Assembly (NCBI RefSeq): GCF_050920415.1
Contig: NZ_CP169309.1
DNA from: Escherichia coli
GTDB lineage: Bacteria; Pseudomonadota; Gammaproteobacteria; Enterobacterales; Enterobacteriaceae
DNA: 64,000 nucleotides
Reading direction: 5' to 3' (one strand)
This document shows, piece by piece, positions 35,368 to 58,566 of this stretch (position 1 is its first letter; each line of letters opens with the position of its first letter). The notes under the pieces are model-generated. The model was given only the letters and a program-made list of their open reading frames with translations, searched no databases and had not been told where the DNA came from. A program made the position numbers and the translations under genes.

Positions 35368-35466
35368 GCCTGATGCGCTGCGCTTATCAGGCCTACAAGG
35401 TTTCTGCAATATATTGAATTTGCAATATTTTGTAGGCCGGATAAGGCGTTCACGCCGCATCCGGCA
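35368..35466. repeat. BIME: two inverted REP units between lafA and lafB
   Basis: gcctgatgcgctgcgcttatcaggcctac ... gtaggccggataaggcgttcacgccgcatccggca. Confidence 0.85.
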
Positions 35467-48558: not shown

Positions 48559-48746
48559 TTTGCTTCGATACCGCGTAGCATATGTATGACTATCTCCCAA
48601 TATTATGACTTTCTGACAAATTTCATCGTGTCTTTTGGATAATTATTGAGCACTCAATCACTACTGTTTAAATATCCAGATGGTAACTATTTCATCTGGG
48701 TCAAATGAGTGATACTGTATCACCAATAAGACCTATGGGGGATGCT

Positions 48747-50171
48747 ATGTCTGAATTTGAATTACTCGTGAAAGATCTTCTTTTAAAATCAGAAGAAGAC
48801 GAGAAAAAGCGACAAGAAAAAGATCGAGAATTAATTTCAAAGGTCCTTGAAATCTATGATCAAAAATATGTTGCAGAACTCTTACGAAAACTAGGAAAAA
48901 ATGAATGGAGCAGAGAAACACTTAACCGTTGGATAAATGGTAAGTGCAATCCTAAGCAATTAACTTCTGCGGAGGAAACTTTACTCCGCAAGATGCTTCC
49001 AGAACCTCCTGAACATCATCCTAACTACACATTTCGTTTTATTGATTTATTCGCAGGGATTGGTGGTATTCGTAAAGGTTTCGAAAACATTGGTGGACAG
49101 TGTGTTTTTACCAGCGAATGGAATAAAGAAGCGGTAAGAACCTACAAAGCTAATTGGTTTAATGATGAACTAAATCATAAATTTAATCTTGATATACGAG
49201 AAGTCACTTTAAGTGATAGAGATGATGTTTCCGAAGTAGAAGCCTATAATCATATAGACAAAAATATTCCAGATCATGATGTCCTTCTGGCCGGTTTTCC
49301 ATGTCAGCCCTTTAGTCTGGCTGGGGTAAGCAAGAAAAACTCTCTGGGGCGTGCACATGGTTTTGAATGTGAGGCACAAGGAACACTATTTTTTGATGTC
49401 GCTCGGATTATTAAATCAAAAAAACCAGCTATTTTTGTGCTTGAGAATGTGAAAAACCTTAAAAGTCATGATAAAGGTAAGACTTTTAAAGTCATCATGG
49501 AAACACTCGATGAATTAGGATATGAAGTCGCCGATGCTGGTGTTACTGGCTCAGATGATCCCAAAATTATAGATGGAAAACATTTTTTACCCCAACATCG
49601 TGAGCGTATAGTGTTGGTAGGATTTCGTAGAGATCTGAATATTCACAAGGATTTCACGTTACGAAACATTAACCGCTTTTACCCTCAAAACAGGCCAACA
49701 TTTGGTGAATTATTAGATCATGATGTTGACGATAAATATATTTTGACTCCAAGGTTATGGGAATATCTTTACAATTATGCAAAAAAACATGCAGCAAAAG
49801 GCAATGGGTTTGGTTTTGGTTTAGTGGATCCTAAAAATCCAGATAGTATCGCAAGGACTCTGTCTGCTCGTTATCATAAAGATGGCTCTGAAATATTGAT
49901 TGATCGTGGCTGGGATAAGGCTGTCGGTGAAATTGACTTTAGTAATCCAGCGAATCAAGAGCATCGTCCAAGAAGACTGACACCTCACGAATGTGCCAGG
50001 CTAATGGGTTTTGAAAAACCAGGGGGAAGACCTTTTAGAATACCTGTATCGGATACACAAGCCTATAGACAATTTGGGAACTCAGTTGTTGTTCCAGTAT
50101 TTGAAGCTGTAGCAAGATTACTAGAACCATATATACAAAAGGCAGTCAATATGCATATTATTAACGATTAA
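48747..50171 (+). CDS. DNA cytosine-5 methyltransferase, EcoRII/Dcm family (CCWGG specificity predicted)
   Basis: Motifs [30 protein letters not shown]; near-colinear with the M.EcoRII/Dcm sequence as I recall it; GGGGA RBS before the ATG; AT-rich relative to flanks. Confidence 0.9.
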
Positions 50172-50194
50172 TAATAATTAATTTTCACTATTGT

Positions 50195-50217
50195 GAGGCC
50201 TTTTTATTAAAGGCCTC
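50195..50217. terminator. Bidirectional hairpin terminator between the convergent M and R genes
   Basis: gaggccttt-ttatt-aaaggcctc flanked by A/T runs. Confidence 0.5.
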
Positions 50218-50257
50218 TAAATATATAATCATGAGTTTTTACAAGTATGTTTTTATA

Positions 50258-51463
50258 TTATACAAAATCTTCATAAAGCGTTATTAACTGTGTAATAAAA
50301 CCATCTAATGTTAATATTTCCTCCCTGATTTCCTCCGGGTATTTTTTATGAAGAGGGGAAGGTACAACCAAGGTGACACCTTCAGCTCTCATTTCGTTAA
50401 ATTGAGCAACAGAGACACCCTCTTGCAAGGTAAACAAATATATCTTGTTGATTTTATTTGCTTCATTAAGCGCCTGTCGCCACCGATCCTTACATGTTGT
50501 TTTTACAGCAAGCATACGGAGTTTTTCTCTTGGAAAGTGATCATCATGGTAAGCTGCCGCTGATGGGAAAAGAAAATCGGGTTTCTTTTTTCCTTCAGTA
50601 ATACATTGAGTAGCAAAATGATGCAGTCCATGCTCAATAAAAATTTGCTCAAGATGTAGCTCCAGTGATTTCCCGGCTCGAGATTTTCTTCTATTACTAA
50701 CAGAGTTAGCCATAGCTATAAAATCATCTACAGAACCAAATCCTTGACGGATGATGTCCAGTACGTGAATTTCTTCAACCATTAGAAAGAGATCATATTC
50801 AATACGGCGGCGTTCTAAAAGTTGGTCATCTGGACTGGTTACGCCTGTTGGGTAATAACCTGCCGCATATTGGATAATATCTAAGCCAGAAGGAAAACTA
50901 TGTTTCCAGCTTTCCGGAATAACATATTCCTTTTGAGAGATTTTTGGCCTTGATGCGAGTACACCAAGTATTTCACTGGCAGGCCCAAACATTAAAGTTC
51001 CTGGAATGATCTCCCCAACAGCTGATTCCAGTACATCCTCTTCTTCTGGGCTTACACAAACCCATACATCAACACTTTTGCTGTCTCTCCCAGGCTCATG
51101 TTCAAACGCAAGCACAGACAAAGCACCTGTATTTTCCGGATCTTGTAGGGGACTGCCAGCCCCCCACCGAGTGATACGTTTTTCATTTCTTGTTTGCCCG
51201 AAATACTTATTATTGTAGTAAATAGCGCGAACCTCACTGTCTACACATTCATGAGAGGAATAAGTTGCGCGCAATAAAACCGAAGGATTTTTTTCTGACG
51301 TATGATCTATAGATGGGAAAAGTTCACCGACGATACCGGAAGGGATATATACCCCCACTTGATGCCCTCCTGTTGCACCAGTGTCGTTTGCTGAAAGACG
51401 TTTGATATAGAGATAATTGTTACCACCGACCTTATCAAGCAGCCAATCTTGTAATCCTGACAT
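50258..51463 (-). CDS. Type IIE restriction endonuclease, EcoRII family
   Basis: 401 aa; long conserved blocks matching R.EcoRII as I recall it (YIKRLSANDTGATGGHQVG, RNEKRITRWG, SPLQDPENTGAL, SVSNRRKSRAGKSLELHLE, KPDFLFPS, LRMLAVKTTCKDRWRQ); convergent with the methyltransferase. Confidence 0.85.
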   Translation of the reverse strand: MSGLQDWLLDKVGGNNYLYIKRLSANDTGATGGHQVGVYIPSGIVGELFPSIDHTSEKNPSVLLRATYSSHECVDSEVRAIYYNNKYFGQTRNEKRITRWGAGSPLQDPENTGALSVLAFEHEPGRDSKSVDVWVCVSPEEEDVLESAVGEIIPGTLMFGPASEILGVLASRPKISQKEYVIPESWKHSFPSGLDIIQYAAGYYPTGVTSPDDQLLERRRIEYDLFLMVEEIHVLDIIRQGFGSVDDFIAMANSVSNRRKSRAGKSLELHLEQIFIEHGLHHFATQCITEGKKKPDFLFPSAAAYHDDHFPREKLRMLAVKTTCKDRWRQALNEANKINKIYLFTLQEGVSVAQFNEMRAEGVTLVVPSPLHKKYPEEIREEILTLDGFITQLITLYEDFV

Positions 51464-52430: not shown

Positions 52431-52445
52431 GGCACGCTTATTGCA
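52431..52445 (+). promoter_or_regulatory. Sigma-54-type promoter upstream of the 309-aa hypothetical gene
   Basis: GGCACGCTTATTGCA (GG-N10-GC spacing, TTGCA -12 element) about 35 nt before the ATG at 52480. Confidence 0.45.
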
Positions 52446-52479
52446 CATCCTGCACAGCATTAAAGACTGGAAGCCACCT

Positions 52480-53409
52480 ATGAGTTTTATTGAATGTTAC
52501 GAACCGGAATATGCGCGCAATTTTATGGCGCAATATCCCGATTCGCCTTTATACGTCCGCAAGGTGTGGAAGAATGAGATTCGCCAGAGCCTGGCATTGA
52601 CCGATATTGCCAGTTGCAAAGCAGTGCTCAACAATGCCAGGGCCTTTGAATTACAGCTTACCTATCGCCCTGTGGAAGAAAATGCCGCAGCGCTATCTGC
52701 GCGCGATGCGATAGTAAACCAGATAATTTTGAGCACCCTCACGCTCCCGGATTTAACCCCAGAGCTTTCACTGTATGCCGTCGGGATTTTGCTCTCCCGC
52801 GCCAGTAAAATGCCGGGCAGAGACGGCGACACTCTCGCCCGGCTGACAGCACTGCCGCAGGCGCTGGCCGATCACGCACAAAAAGGCACGTTACAGGCAC
52901 AGTTCGCACAGCTACCGCCTGTGCCACAGCTGGCGCGCCAACTGGTGACGCTGCTCGGGAGTTTTGCGTTTGACTGGTCGATTCTGCCGAAAAGCCCGCG
53001 CAAAGCCTCACTGCCGTTGCAGGTTACCTTGCTGACGCTGCACGACGCCAACAGCGAAGCCCTGTTGCAGCAGCAGCTTCAGACACAGTGGCAAACTACC
53101 TGGCAACAGCATTTTGCCACCGCGCCGTGGATGATGCGTAACTGGCTAATTTACCGGGTTTATCACGATGTGATTGGCCAGGCAGACGGGGCGGATTATT
53201 TCCCGCTGGTGTGCGATTTTTACCTCATCCGCACGTTAATCAGTTTATGGACGCTGGATGATTCACCGCTGCGGCAGGAGGATATTTTCGCCCTCTTCGC
53301 GGTGTTTGAACGCTGGCGAACCAGTGAAAATGCCGTGCTGATTCGCCAGCAAATTCAGTCATTATGTGCCGCCGACCCGCTGCTTTCAGCGTTTTCGTTG
53401 CTGACGTGA
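52480..53409 (+). CDS. Hypothetical protein, no recognisable domain; apparent sigma-54 regulon member within Flag-2
   Basis: 309 aa from the first ATG downstream of the promoter; typical GC content; the ORF-track start at 52441 is a TTG inside the promoter. Confidence 0.6.
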   Translation: MSFIECYEPEYARNFMAQYPDSPLYVRKVWKNEIRQSLALTDIASCKAVLNNARAFELQLTYRPVEENAAALSARDAIVNQIILSTLTLPDLTPELSLYAVGILLSRASKMPGRDGDTLARLTALPQALADHAQKGTLQAQFAQLPPVPQLARQLVTLLGSFAFDWSILPKSPRKASLPLQVTLLTLHDANSEALLQQQLQTQWQTTWQQHFATAPWMMRNWLIYRVYHDVIGQADGADYFPLVCDFYLIRTLISLWTLDDSPLRQEDIFALFAVFERWRTSENAVLIRQQIQSLCAADPLLSAFSLLT

Positions 53410-56041: not shown

Positions 56042-56052
56042 ACCGCAGAAGT

Positions 56053-56150
<98 letters not shown>

Positions 56151-56367
56151 CGAACAGCGCACTTATCTACCCTTCGATTTTAAATACATCTCTTTATGGC
56201 TGGTGAATCGGTAAAGTCGTAGATTGTGGGGGAGCGATCTTTATGAATTCTGAAAAAACCCTGAATCTTGCTAAACATATTGCTTATCATAAATATAGGT
56301 TACACACTATAAAAATTACTGCGTAATTTAACATCTTGCCTAAAAATGATAGAGCGTAAACGATAAT

Positions 56368-57189
56368 ATGACTTCTGATAAAAAAGTAACTTCCGGTACG
56401 ACAAGCCAGAAACAAAACAACATTGTCACTCAAAAAATATCACGCCAGAAGGAATTGTTTCTATTATTTTGGGTTGATGAGTCCGATGATAGCCGACGTT
56501 CTATTTTTGAAGAAGCATGTCTGACGCGTTATTTCAATATCCTTTATTCCCCCGAGTATAAAAAAGAAACACAGATAGTTTATCATTTATCAATTAACAC
56601 ATTTAATCAAATCAAAGAAATATTAGAAATCTTTATAAACAAGAATGGAGGTAAAACTAAAGCAAAGGTTAAAGAAGTCAGTTTATTCTCACATGGGGGG
56701 CCAATTCATGGTCCTACAACCTCAAACTCTATAAATACACCTTCCGTGCCTAAATACCCACAACAAATGGACATATCCGGAGGATGGGATTCAATTGATT
56801 TTAACTGGTCAAACAATGCTATGTTTGTTATGTATGGTTGTCGCACTAGTTATGCAAGTGATGATTCAGGACAAGGTTTTGCCAGTAAATTATCCCTATT
56901 AGATAATTTTAAGGACGTGAATGTCTGGGGTCAAACAGAAAGTACTTATCCATCTTATTTCCCAGATATCAGGACAACGTCGATTATGAGGTCAATAAAT
57001 ATAGGTTGGTCTTTTTCACCAACATATATGGTTGCCAATTCTGAAGGTCAAGGATGGGATGCATTATTCCCGGATAATCGAAATCCATTAAAAGCTCTCC
57101 CTATGCAGTGTTATAATAATGGGACATTGATTTTAACCTGCGATCAAAGCAATTTTAATGATCACCGGAAGAATAAATCAAATGATTAG
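56368..57189 (+). CDS. Hypothetical protein in AT-rich DNA, no assignable domain (candidate toxin/effector of a two-gene cassette)
   Basis: 273 aa single long ORF in strongly AT-rich DNA; no signal peptide; possible His...Cys pair (FSHGGPIHG ... MYGCRTS); weak RBS. Confidence 0.55.
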   Translation: MTSDKKVTSGTTSQKQNNIVTQKISRQKELFLLFWVDESDDSRRSIFEEACLTRYFNILYSPEYKKETQIVYHLSINTFNQIKEILEIFINKNGGKTKAKVKEVSLFSHGGPIHGPTTSNSINTPSVPKYPQQMDISGGWDSIDFNWSNNAMFVMYGCRTSYASDDSGQGFASKLSLLDNFKDVNVWGQTESTYPSYFPDIRTTSIMRSINIGWSFSPTYMVANSEGQGWDALFPDNRNPLKALPMQCYNNGTLILTCDQSNFNDHRKNKSND

Positions 57190-57721
57190 CATTGTATTGA
57201 GAAGCTTTATTTTATTATTCATAATAATAGTGTATCCGGATTATAATAAAAACCCACCTGCCTTTGAAGTATATGGGGAAAATGACATACTTAAGGATAT
57301 GGTTATTAATATGAAAACTTATAGATACCATAGTAAGGAAAACTCTTCCCCCACAGCTATAGTGCAAACCATCCTTTTTAAAGGAAATATACAGCAAGTT
57401 TTTGAAAGCAATGACATGGGTGGTGCGAGCTTCTTTTTTTCTTATAATAATAAGGTTGAAACGCTGGTAACAGACGCTTTCTTTTTAAATAAAAAATTAG
57501 ACAAACTGCATGATGCAAATATTTTTGAGGTTATAAAGCATAAGGAAAACATCGTTATTAGATATTACAAGTGCAAAATTGAATATATGCAAAGAGAAAA
57601 ATTTATCGAAATAGAGATATCAACAAACAAAAATAGTTATTTTAACAAGAATGGAATAAAACAAAAAGATACAAATAAATATAACACATATTTCTTCAAT
57701 TACTTTGAGTCTCAAAAATAA
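57182..57721 (+). CDS. Hypothetical protein with N-terminal hydrophobic anchor, AT-rich (candidate immunity/partner protein)
   Basis: ATG overlaps the stop of the upstream gene (ATGATTAG); N-terminal SIVLRSFILLFIIIVY hydrophobic segment; Asn/Lys/Tyr-rich; alternative start at 57158. Confidence 0.5.
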   Translation: MISIVLRSFILLFIIIVYPDYNKNPPAFEVYGENDILKDMVINMKTYRYHSKENSSPTAIVQTILFKGNIQQVFESNDMGGASFFFSYNNKVETLVTDAFFLNKKLDKLHDANIFEVIKHKENIVIRYYKCKIEYMQREKFIEIEISTNKNSYFNKNGIKQKDTNKYNTYFFNYFESQK

Positions 57722-57724
57722 ATT

Positions 57725-58129
57725 TTATTTTGTCATGCGCGCCCTCCTAATCACCTCAATAATCCCCGTCGTCGACACCGACGGCGTGCGGGGGAAATAG
57801 ACCACCTCACAAATATACGCGAAGCTATCAAACTTCCCTGCCCAGTCATCGCCCATCACCAAAACATCCGCACTGTACCCCCGCAGATATTCCGCTTTCT
57901 GCGCCAGCGATTCCTCGAGAAATACGCCATCCACGCACGCCAGCCCGGCGATAATCGCCATGCGGTCATCCTGAGGGTAAACCGGTGCCCTGCCCTTTTT
58001 GGCAATATTTAAGGCGTCGGACGACACGCCAACCAGCAGCCGTTCGCCCAGCGTGCGGGCGCGTTGTAAAAGGCGCAGATGACCGACATGAAACACATCG
58101 AAGGTGCCGAAGGTGATGACCGTTTTCAT
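57725..58129 (-). CDS. Cytidylyltransferase, TagD-like (glycerol-3-phosphate cytidylyltransferase family)
   Basis: N-terminal FGTFDVFHVGH nucleotidyltransferase motif; about 134 aa; ATG 2 nt after the lfiJ stop with a GGAG RBS inside the lfiJ 3-prime end. Confidence 0.8.
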   Translation of the reverse strand: MKTVITFGTFDVFHVGHLRLLQRARTLGERLLVGVSSDALNIAKKGRAPVYPQDDRMAIIAGLACVDGVFLEESLAQKAEYLRGYSADVLVMGDDWAGKFDSFAYICEVVYFPRTPSVSTTGIIEVIRRARMTK

Positions 58130-58131
58130 GG

Positions 58132-58566
58132 CTACTCCGCTAATTTGTGCCGTAGCCAGCACTGAACGGCGATGTCATCCACCGCTTTTTGCGCTTTCGC
58201 CGTGGCACTTTCTTGCTGCTCGCGGCGTTTGTCATCCAGCGTCAGGGCCACCACTTTCTCTTCGCATGCCGCCGCCGTCAGGTTTTTCTGCATTCGCGTA
58301 GCCTTGATGTTAGCCAGCGTTTTTTCCTGCTCCTGCCAGGCGATCACTTTGCGCAAGGTGCCTTTGTAGCCGCTGACGTTTTTCAGCGATTCCACCGACG
58401 CCGCCGCGCCCGCAGATGTTTTCTCCACCAGGTAGCCTAACGCTTTGATATTGTTGTCATAGCCCGCGCAAATCTGTTTTTGCTTTGCCAGCTCGACGGT
58501 TTTGTCTTTGACCGATTTATCCCGCAGGCGCTGCAATTGCGCGAGGGTGTCGATGATTTGTCGCAT
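58132..58566 (-). CDS. lfiJ: FliJ-like flagellar export protein
   Basis: 144 aa coiled-coil protein immediately downstream of the FliI-like ATPase. Confidence 0.65.
   Translation of the reverse strand: MRQIIDTLAQLQRLRDKSVKDKTVELAKQKQICAGYDNNIKALGYLVEKTSAGAAASVESLKNVSGYKGTLRKVIAWQEQEKTLANIKATRMQKNLTAAACEEKVVALTLDDKRREQQESATAKAQKAVDDIAVQCWLRHKLAE

Follow-up and report, generated by a model that had tools for sequence, protein, structure and literature searches.

The secondary flagellar (Flag-2) locus of Escherichia coli is covered by the 64,000 nt of contig NZ_CP169309.1 (assembly GCF_050920415.1) analysed here, hereafter called the window, and it poses the question of what two overlapping, AT-rich genes coding for hypothetical proteins are doing within it. 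We refer to these genes as ORF1 and ORF2 and to both together as the cassette (Table 1). An earlier note on this DNA had proposed an undescribed effector/immunity or defence module. Of these options, effector/immunity was upheld by relatives linked to Rhs, Hcp and VgrG, by a predicted clan-CD fold and by an invariable partner gene, whereas defence received no support, as no match was found in PADLOC. We consider it very likely that the pair is a polymorphic toxin with its immunity protein, and probable that the cassette is an orphan effector–immunity pair of type VI secretion system (T6SS)/Rhs polymorphic-toxin kind that was acquired horizontally and sits as cargo in variable region 1 (VR1) of Flag-2. 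The kind of system is known (a T6SS/Rhs polymorphic toxin with cognate immunity protein), and it is the ORF1/ORF2 family that is uncharacterised; this is not a new category of system, and the interpretation in the earlier note was essentially right.

Scans against NCBIfam and PADLOC returned zero matches for either protein (for PADLOC, 0 families at E ≤ 1), and a word-indexed homology search reached just 5–6 close clusters, so that the ORF1 family first looked like an orphan. An exhaustive profile search reversed that picture, yielding 292 cluster representatives with E ≤ 1e-3, of which 189 also have E ≤ 1e-10. The domain lies at the very end of its proteins: it stops no more than 30 residues from the C-terminus in 110 of 130 informative matches, 84 of these 130 carry an N-terminal extension, and in 56 of those 84 the Rhs junction motif NNPxxxxDPxG immediately precedes the domain. 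For seven of nine long homologues (559–1,553 aa) the Rhs_assc_core domain (TIGR03696) is directly N-terminal to it, and proteins of 2,743–3,576 aa likewise terminate in an ORF1-type domain. A search of PDB sequences with the family profile matched just Rhs/TccC cores, in the extension columns, and nothing in the toxin domain. Links to the T6SS itself were also found. One relative (P0022) is a fusion of Hcp (TssD) to the toxin (Pfam E 2.3e-7) and another (P0017) is encoded directly after a TssD gene; P0013 comes after a DUF2345/VgrG gene, and the gene of P0011 begins within the end of a VgrG-like one. The toxin genes placed after a VgrG-type gene include those of Aquimarina muelleri and of one metagenomic contig. 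In Chryseobacterium echinoideorum and C. aahli the gene order is putative hcp, vgrG, toxin, immunity; here VgrG is matched by TIGR01646 (E 1e-37 and 2e-21) and also by TIGR03361, and the putative hcp, which has no match to any NCBIfam model, was identified by eye. Because Rhs C-termini, an Hcp fusion and vgrG/hcp-linked relatives make up the defining architecture of polymorphic-toxin C-terminal domains, ORF1 reads, by homology, as a stand-alone copy of such a domain. The family ranges over Enterobacteriaceae, Moraxellaceae and Bacteroidota in a taxonomic survey that is thin, the related-locus search having used a single C-terminal pattern that returned 4 loci.

The similarity of ORF1 to the Pfam family DUF4347 (PF14252) is weak (E 2.4e-4, 21.4 bits, 92 of 164 profile positions), and this match recurs in 2 of 84 relatives at E ≤ 1e-3 and in 9 of 84 at E ≤ 0.1; going by these profile scores, 'remote sister family of DUF4347' is the description that suits the ORF1 family best. 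UniProt labels the relatives 'uncharacterized', or 'DUF4347' for distant members. The stand-alone form begins with a short leader, in which K6, V7, T8, G10, T11, T12, N18, I19, Q22, I24, R26 and K28 are invariant down to a homologue of 44 % identity, and which may be a loading or recognition segment. Residues 17–29 resemble the Rhs core–toxin junction, in that the spacing of NNIVTQKISRQKE to strand 1 equals that of NNPxxxxDPxGxx, a weak resemblance, as the aligning profile contained ORF1 itself; the leader may derive from that junction, but the inference is a weak one. Among other relatives, P0028 carries an N-terminal LysM domain (Pfam 1.5e-13) and a structural relative in the AlphaFold database (A0A1J5EL21; 19 % identity, E 1.6e-8) is annotated with a Peptidase M23 domain. 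From these two fusions comes a weak indication that the cell wall is where the family acts.

Fold searches with a structural model of ORF1 returned solely clan-CD proteins at the top, and the model itself is an alpha/beta/alpha sandwich with the clan-CD sheet topology. The predicted fold is thus that of clan CD (caspase-, cysteine protease domain (CPD)- or legumain-like), in a domain of ∼240 residues after the leader. The earlier note had pointed to a possible His...Cys pair (FSH109GG ... YGC158RTS), and conservation supports that choice, with the two residues retained in nearly all members of an 84-sequence set (Table 1). The motifs read S-H-[GSA]-G and Y-G-C; the histidine comes before the cysteine, and both lie at the ends of core strands. 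Within the same set Gly157 is invariant (84/84), as are Q133, G188 and S196, and T53-R54, E103, Q189 and R202 are nearly so. The distance between histidine and cysteine is 49 residues in ORF1, compared with 45–54 residues in TcdB and in Tce1 (PA0256) and Tce2 (PA2372), two Hcp3-loaded putative cysteine-protease T6SS effectors of Pseudomonas aeruginosa (PDB 9qpe; PMC13323088) that belong to DUF4347. On alignment and model together, H109 and C158 are the predicted clan-CD catalytic dyad, an assignment that agreed with such a dyad in every respect examined. We judge it somewhat more probable than the opposite that the toxin, as modelled, is an active protease acting in the periplasm. Two family members depart from the motifs: in P0018 the positions of the catalytic His and Cys are taken by Tyr and Asn, respectively, and in P0116 the His is replaced by Asn; from their sequences they look like catalytically dead variants in an otherwise conserved family. 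An alpha/beta-hydrolase reading, with an HG oxyanion motif and a Cys nucleophile, was rejected as the top of the fold searches is exclusively clan CD, and Tox-HDC was likewise rejected, its signature being SGxH without immunity genes and no Pfam match having been obtained.

For ORF2 and nine members of its family, Pfam gave zero matches. The genomic context is highly regular: an ORF2-family gene stands immediately 3′ of the toxin gene in all 12 contexts examined (the window, L001, L007/L009, L005, L002/L015, L010, L011, L012, L021, L022 and L023), which include the E. coli alleles, Superficieibacter electus, the 44 % clade, three distant stand-alone or VgrG-linked loci, Psychrobacter okhotskensis and the two Chryseobacterium species. 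Weaker cases (L017 and L018) are small lipoprotein genes after a Rhs toxin and after an Hcp-linked toxin. Close and distant ORF2 sets were connected by hhalign with a probability of 97 % (E 6e-11). The majority of members possess a lipobox (LVCTGC, LLPGC, IICGC-D, LTGC-D, LTSC, FFNC, FSAC, LISC, NINC, NQSC or NISC), as found in P0009, L005, L002, L010, L011, L017, L018, L022 and L023. The ORF2 of the window has at the aligned place the hydrophobic segment MISIVLRSFILLFIIIVYP, and the N-terminal anchor that had been noticed there recurs as a helix at residues 2–25 of its AlphaFold2 model. Tandem paralogues of the ORF2 family occur in Aquimarina (three) and in C. echinoideorum (two), and in ∼13 E. 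coli genomes ORF1 is gone, with three unrelated small genes in its place and ORF2 intact. Obligate adjacency, faster co-divergence (see below), tandem duplication, orphan retention and export together argue for ORF2 as a putative periplasm-facing immunity protein; these same properties do not fit a cytoplasmic chaperone or adaptor. Since the partner is a Sec-exported, usually lipidated small protein, the target of the toxin would most likely be periplasmic. In E. coli THO-010, at the same VR1 site, the replacement genes (L014 2257–3985) specify proteins of 126 aa with CxxC motifs and of 166 aa and ∼212 aa with signal peptides, a set that looks like an array of orphan immunity genes.

Both genes are intact, and they overlap as had been described, although the 8-nt coupling through ATGATTAG is probably not the true arrangement. 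An upstream ATG at 57158 falls within conserved Asn-Asp-His codons of ORF1 (aATGATCAc), and because distant ORF2 homologues begin at this very position (MIIG...), the overlap is probably 32 nt. Pairwise ratios of non-synonymous to synonymous divergence (dN/dS) were 0.15–0.18 for ORF1 and 0.13–0.23 for ORF2, with zero stops among the alleles compared, and both genes were annotated in 33 of 35 genomes in a spread sample of the full-length matches listed. By these values both ORFs are genuine coding genes under purifying selection. The possibility of pseudogene remnants, against which the earlier note had asked its proposal to be checked, is excluded by dN/dS together with intactness across 129 genomes.

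The cassette was found in 146 of 5,426 complete E. coli genomes, always as a single copy and full-length in 129 of them, such that both ORFs are present at full length in ∼2.4 % of complete genomes. As the Flag-2 gene lfiI is present in 1,278 E. coli genomes, ∼10 % of Flag-2 loci are occupied. Two Escherichia assemblies (L007 and L009) hold a divergent allele at exactly the site of the window, and three divergent E. coli alleles in all occupy this one VR1 site. Compared with L007/L009, the flanking FliH, FliI and FliJ of the window are 98–100 % identical (FliI and FliJ 99–100 %) with a synonymous divergence (dS) of 0.22–0.31, whereas ORF1 is 71–72 % identical with dS 1.3, and ORF2 54–55 % identical with dS 2.0–2.5, at dN/dS 0.13–0.18 for either gene. 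Because dS in the cassette is 1.3–2.5 against 0.22–0.31 in the flanks, the alleles are far older than the surrounding locus and were exchanged by recombination, with ORF2 diverging faster than ORF1. Copies also exist away from flagellar genes. Flagellar genes are absent around the AT-rich islet that the pair (66 and 38 % identical) forms in Superficieibacter electus between nfo and fruA, and in E. coli MEW (L015 4425–8032) a 45 %-identical pair lies between intact and degraded ISAs1 (H-repeat) transposases in the yncG–pptA interval, which in K-12 is the site of the RhsE element. The horizontal acquisition that had been argued from composition is therefore borne out by non-flagellar copies, by ∼10 % occupancy and by the dS contrast with the flanks, as well as by composition itself. 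The MEW partner gene lacks the signal/lipobox segment seen in the metagenomic homologue L002 and may be damaged. At the L007 locus (GCA_910664915.1), a Fic-domain gene (358 aa; L007 8546–10106) lies between the divergent cassette and the TagD-like gene, accompanied by short duplicated 3′-end fragments of the TagD-like gene and of fliJ (tblastn); this region is a recombination or insertion scar at the VR1 hotspot.

The steps by which such a pair would act can be outlined as follows. ORF1 would be made in the cytoplasm, because it lacks a signal peptide, and by analogy with its Rhs, Hcp-fused and vgrG/hcp-adjacent relatives a T6SS would take it up as cargo on its spike or tube and inject it into Gram-negative neighbours. 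Once in the target's periplasm, the toxin would behave as a cysteine endopeptidase, cutting a periplasmic or membrane-anchored protein or a murein/lipoprotein peptide link. ORF2, translationally coupled to ORF1, would be exported and anchored facing the periplasm, where it would bind toxin arriving from sister cells and block its active site. Linkage to vgrG or hcp is present for homologues of ORF1, whereas the E. coli cassette itself is ∼22 kb from a T6SS island, which lies outside the window in the strain that matches it and is complete; delivery in the window strain is feasible for this reason, and whether the T6SS of this strain does deliver the toxin is, on the analogy with the relatives, an evenly balanced matter. 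The island contains hcp, three vgrG genes (one truncated by IS21), two PAAR genes, tssBCEFGJK and tagH, and its cargo comprises a Tae4 amidase, a Tle1 lipase with three DUF3304 genes, a DUF4123 adaptor and an M23 endopeptidase effector. A second ORF1-family gene was sought in this island and none was found, a vgrG-linked pair of 307 aa and 190 aa there being unrelated.

Several observations weigh against an effector–immunity pair of this description. Genes for vgrG, hcp and PAAR (or rhs) are absent beside the cassette in the E. coli loci examined, and the cassette-bearing strain SMS-3-5 has no T6SS island at the site used in the window strain (the aspV side, the only site checked). The dyad is a predicted one, assigned from conservation, residue order, spacing and post-strand position. 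In the window allele of ORF2 the lipobox Cys is lost, with the hydrophobic segment kept, and the AlphaFold2 model of ORF2, built from three sequences, is unusable (predicted local distance difference test score 41). Finally, no immunity gene accompanies Tce1 or Tce2, toxicity in the E. coli cytoplasm was seen for neither, and yeast is sensitive to Tce2 (PMC13323088).

The first two of these points lend themselves to the alternative that survives best, which we nevertheless hold to be unlikely, namely that the cassette is a defensive or relic module: a stranded orphan pair, no longer delivered, whose value would lie mainly in ORF2 immunity against toxin-bearing attackers, with ORF1 kept as a recombination reservoir or slowly decaying. 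The ORF1-less genomes, with ORF2 intact beside three small, mostly secreted proteins resembling an immunity array, and the ISAs1 elements flanking the MEW copy point the same way. Set against these are the intactness of ORF1 in 129 genomes at its low dN/dS, the conservation of its predicted catalytic residues and N-terminal leader, the closely similar stand-alone homologues situated directly after vgrG, and the complete T6SS of the window strain. This alternative partly overlaps with the effector–immunity reading, in that the pair might survive in E. coli mainly as acquired immunity or as a recombination reservoir.

Tce1 and Tce2 are remote structural relatives of ORF1 and the nearest that have been characterised; sequence similarity to them is marginal, and the ORF1-family profile misses 9qpe by sequence. 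They lack an immunity gene, are non-toxic in E. coli and have been proposed to be anti-eukaryotic, whereas the ORF1 family always has an exported partner gene and is also found at Rhs C-termini. Because Tce1 and Tce2 are non-toxic in E. coli and Tce2 is toxic to yeast, the superfamily would, by analogy, not be uniformly antibacterial, and ORF1 could be conceived as a Tce2-like cysteine protease directed against host or predator (amoeba) cells, with ORF2 having a role other than immunity. We regard this as improbable. The co-diversifying exported partner present in all 12 contexts, the tandem paralogues and the retained orphans typify interbacterial toxins, and no immunity gene adjoins Tce1 or Tce2.

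'Tox-Caspase' was catalogued by Zhang et al. in 2012 (PMC3482391) as a broad, in-silico class of polymorphic-toxin C-terminal domains, listed with Imm36. Like it, ORF1 has a predicted caspase-like fold with H and C, occupies the C-terminal-most position in RHS/T6SS-type toxins, occurs in Proteobacteria and Bacteroidetes and is followed by immunity genes; unlike it, the immunity proteins of the ORF1 family are a distinct lipoprotein family without a Pfam match, and the ORF1 family is possibly among the Tox-Caspase sequences. The description of the module as 'undescribed' therefore holds in part: Tox-Caspase (2012; PMC3482391) and Tce1/Tce2 (2026; PMC13323088) came before, yet both families lack a Pfam or NCBIfam model, and our literature search found no paper on the ORF1 family or its immunity partner. 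The layout also resembles that of the Tae/Tai, Tge/Tgi and Tle/Tli pairs, in that the gene after an effector without a signal peptide encodes a small immunity protein, periplasmic or a lipoprotein, that orphan and tandem immunity copies occur and that relatives are linked to vgrG/hcp. The enzymes differ, Tae effectors being papain-like NlpC/P60 or CHAP proteins (Cys before His) and Tle effectors lipases, whereas ORF1 is of predicted clan CD (His before Cys); in Pfam and NCBIfam ORF1 had no NlpC/P60-CHAP, glycoside hydrolase or lipase match, and a GxSxG motif is absent. CPDs (peptidase C80; MARTX, Clostridioides difficile TcdA/TcdB) are internal autoprocessing modules, activated by inositol hexakisphosphate, in toxins aimed at eukaryotes, whereas the ORF1 domain is a terminal payload paired with an immunity gene and is just 7–14 % identical to CPDs. 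We know of no characterised clan-CD T6SS effector that has a periplasmic immunity protein, and our literature search yielded no paper describing a T6SS effector of caspase fold with such a partner. It is possible, and we put it forward tentatively, that ORF1 founds the first antibacterial clan-CD family of T6SS/Rhs periplasmic toxins, cutting an envelope protein or the murein–lipoprotein peptide link and neutralised by a new lipoprotein immunity fold.

Within Flag-2 the cassette occupies the interval between lfiJ and lfgN, i.e. VR1, already recognised as a hotspot of cargo genes whose GC content deviates (PMC6993521). The window DNA is 100 % identical to that of MFDS1022581 and ∼94–95 % identical to that of SMS-3-5, NC101 and others. 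The setting described in the earlier note was recovered on every side: an AT-rich pair (GC 0.30–0.36 over 56200–57800) between GC-richer flanks (0.55–0.62 on each side), a bacterial interspersed mosaic element (BIME) as left neighbour and, as right neighbour, a TagD-like gene convergent with the pair; this gene is matched by TIGR01518, and 3 nt separate its stop codon from the one of ORF2. The BIME, a pair of repetitive extragenic palindromic (REP) sequences, contains a 30-mer (56120–56149) that recurs at 35436–35465 with 1 mismatch, where 0 matches would be expected by chance, and a 2-kb query including the BIME gave 174,886 matching places in 5,425 E. coli genomes. The 5′ intergenic region presumably holds the promoter of the cassette; a scan for promoters and terminators found 11 promoter sites, no excess over the 7.1 ± 2.7 of shuffled sequences and none of them on the + strand upstream of ORF1, and is uninformative in DNA this AT-rich.

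From this setting arises the further possibility that the pair processes or modifies the Flag-2 flagellin or its glycan, or that ORF1 is exported by the Flag-2 type III apparatus. The cassette does sit in VR1 between glycosyltransferase and TagD-like genes, VR1 contains mostly flagellin-modification enzymes and has been speculated to hold secretion cargo (PMC6993521), and three divergent E. coli alleles share one site. Such a function is nevertheless very improbable and was rejected, as only one in ten Flag-2 loci has the cassette, as the Superficieibacter and MEW copies lie at non-flagellar sites and as the relatives are linked to Rhs, Hcp or VgrG and none is flagellar; the composition and dS are also foreign to the flanks, and no flagellar or glycosylation homology of ORF1 or ORF2 was detected in NCBIfam or Pfam. 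Least probable of all is anti-phage defence or abortive infection in which a caspase-like protease would be the effector, in the manner of CHAT/SAVED or Craspase-type systems, as PADLOC matches neither protein (E ≤ 1), the partner is an exported lipoprotein in place of any sensor, nucleotide-signalling or CRISPR component, and the domain is found at Rhs C-termini and after vgrG/hcp.

If ORF1 is active, the few kinds of interbacterial toxin that act in the periplasm (amidases, muramidases and lipases) would be joined by a caspase-fold protease, and this would indicate an envelope substrate whose cleavage kills, and hence a possible antibacterial target. ORF2 would supply a new family of immunity proteins, and Tce1 and Tce2 would gain an antibacterial sister family that is tractable and brings its own inhibitor. 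Two 'hypothetical' E. coli genes are reclassified by these results, and Flag-2 VR1 is seen to gather cargo of apparent inter-bacterial conflict (ORF1–ORF2, EcoRII–Dcm, Fic and the immunity-like arrays) besides flagellin-modification genes.

Table 1. Location of the cassette, its predicted functional residues and the features around it (positions are those of the window unless a contig is named)
Feature	Position	Strand	Description
ORF1	56368–57189	+	273 aa, intact; predicted stand-alone polymorphic-toxin domain of clan-CD (caspase-like) cysteine-protease fold, without signal peptide
ORF1 N-terminal leader (residues 1–28)	56368–56451	+	Hydrophilic; conserved among stand-alone homologues
His109 codon (FSH-GG)	56692–56694	+	Predicted catalytic His; His in 82/84 family members; after model strand 99–107
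Cys158 codon (YGC)	56839–56841	+	Predicted catalytic nucleophile; Cys in 83/84; after model strand 147–155
ORF2	57158–57721 or 57182–57721	+	187 aa or 179 aa (RefSeq call); predicted exported, membrane-anchored immunity protein
ORF2 N-terminal hydrophobic segment	57182–57238	+	Putative signal peptide or signal anchor; aligned opposite LVCTGC, LLPGC, IICGC and LTGC of homologues
AT-rich 5′ intergenic region of cassette	56160–56367	+	GC drop from 0.54 to 0.34
REP pair (BIME)	∼56046–56150		Left boundary, between glycosyltransferase gene and AT-rich island; read from sequence
TagD-like glycerol-3-phosphate cytidylyltransferase	57725–58162	–	NCBIfam TIGR01518, E 2e-32; right boundary
Dcm-type cytosine methylase	48705–50171	+	NCBIfam 2e-275; second AT-rich island
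EcoRII restriction endonuclease	50258–51463	–	Pfam EcoRII-N 1e-59, EcoRII-C 1e-70; convergent with Dcm-type methylase
T6SS island (L016)	NZ_CP169399.1 4105000–4139500		∼22–56 kb beyond cassette; adjoins yafV

Some neighbouring features were recorded in addition. Upstream of the gene for an 836-aa glycosyltransferase, a gene at 52441–53409 specifies a LafV/FliB-like flagellin lysine-N-methylase (NCBIfam NF038110, E 2.6e-11, under the family cutoff); this methylase, the GT2-type glycosyltransferase and the TagD-like gene are the genuine flagellin-modification part of VR1. A second AT-rich island of Flag-2 (48705–51463, GC 0.33–0.46) holds the Dcm-type methylase and EcoRII genes, a cargo reported by De Maayer et al. 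from 21 Escherichia strains (PMC6993521). In the T6SS island of L016 the mobile parts are IS2, a group II intron and ISAs1 remnants, and in L016 a HicAB toxin–antitoxin pair is located directly 3′ of lfhA.

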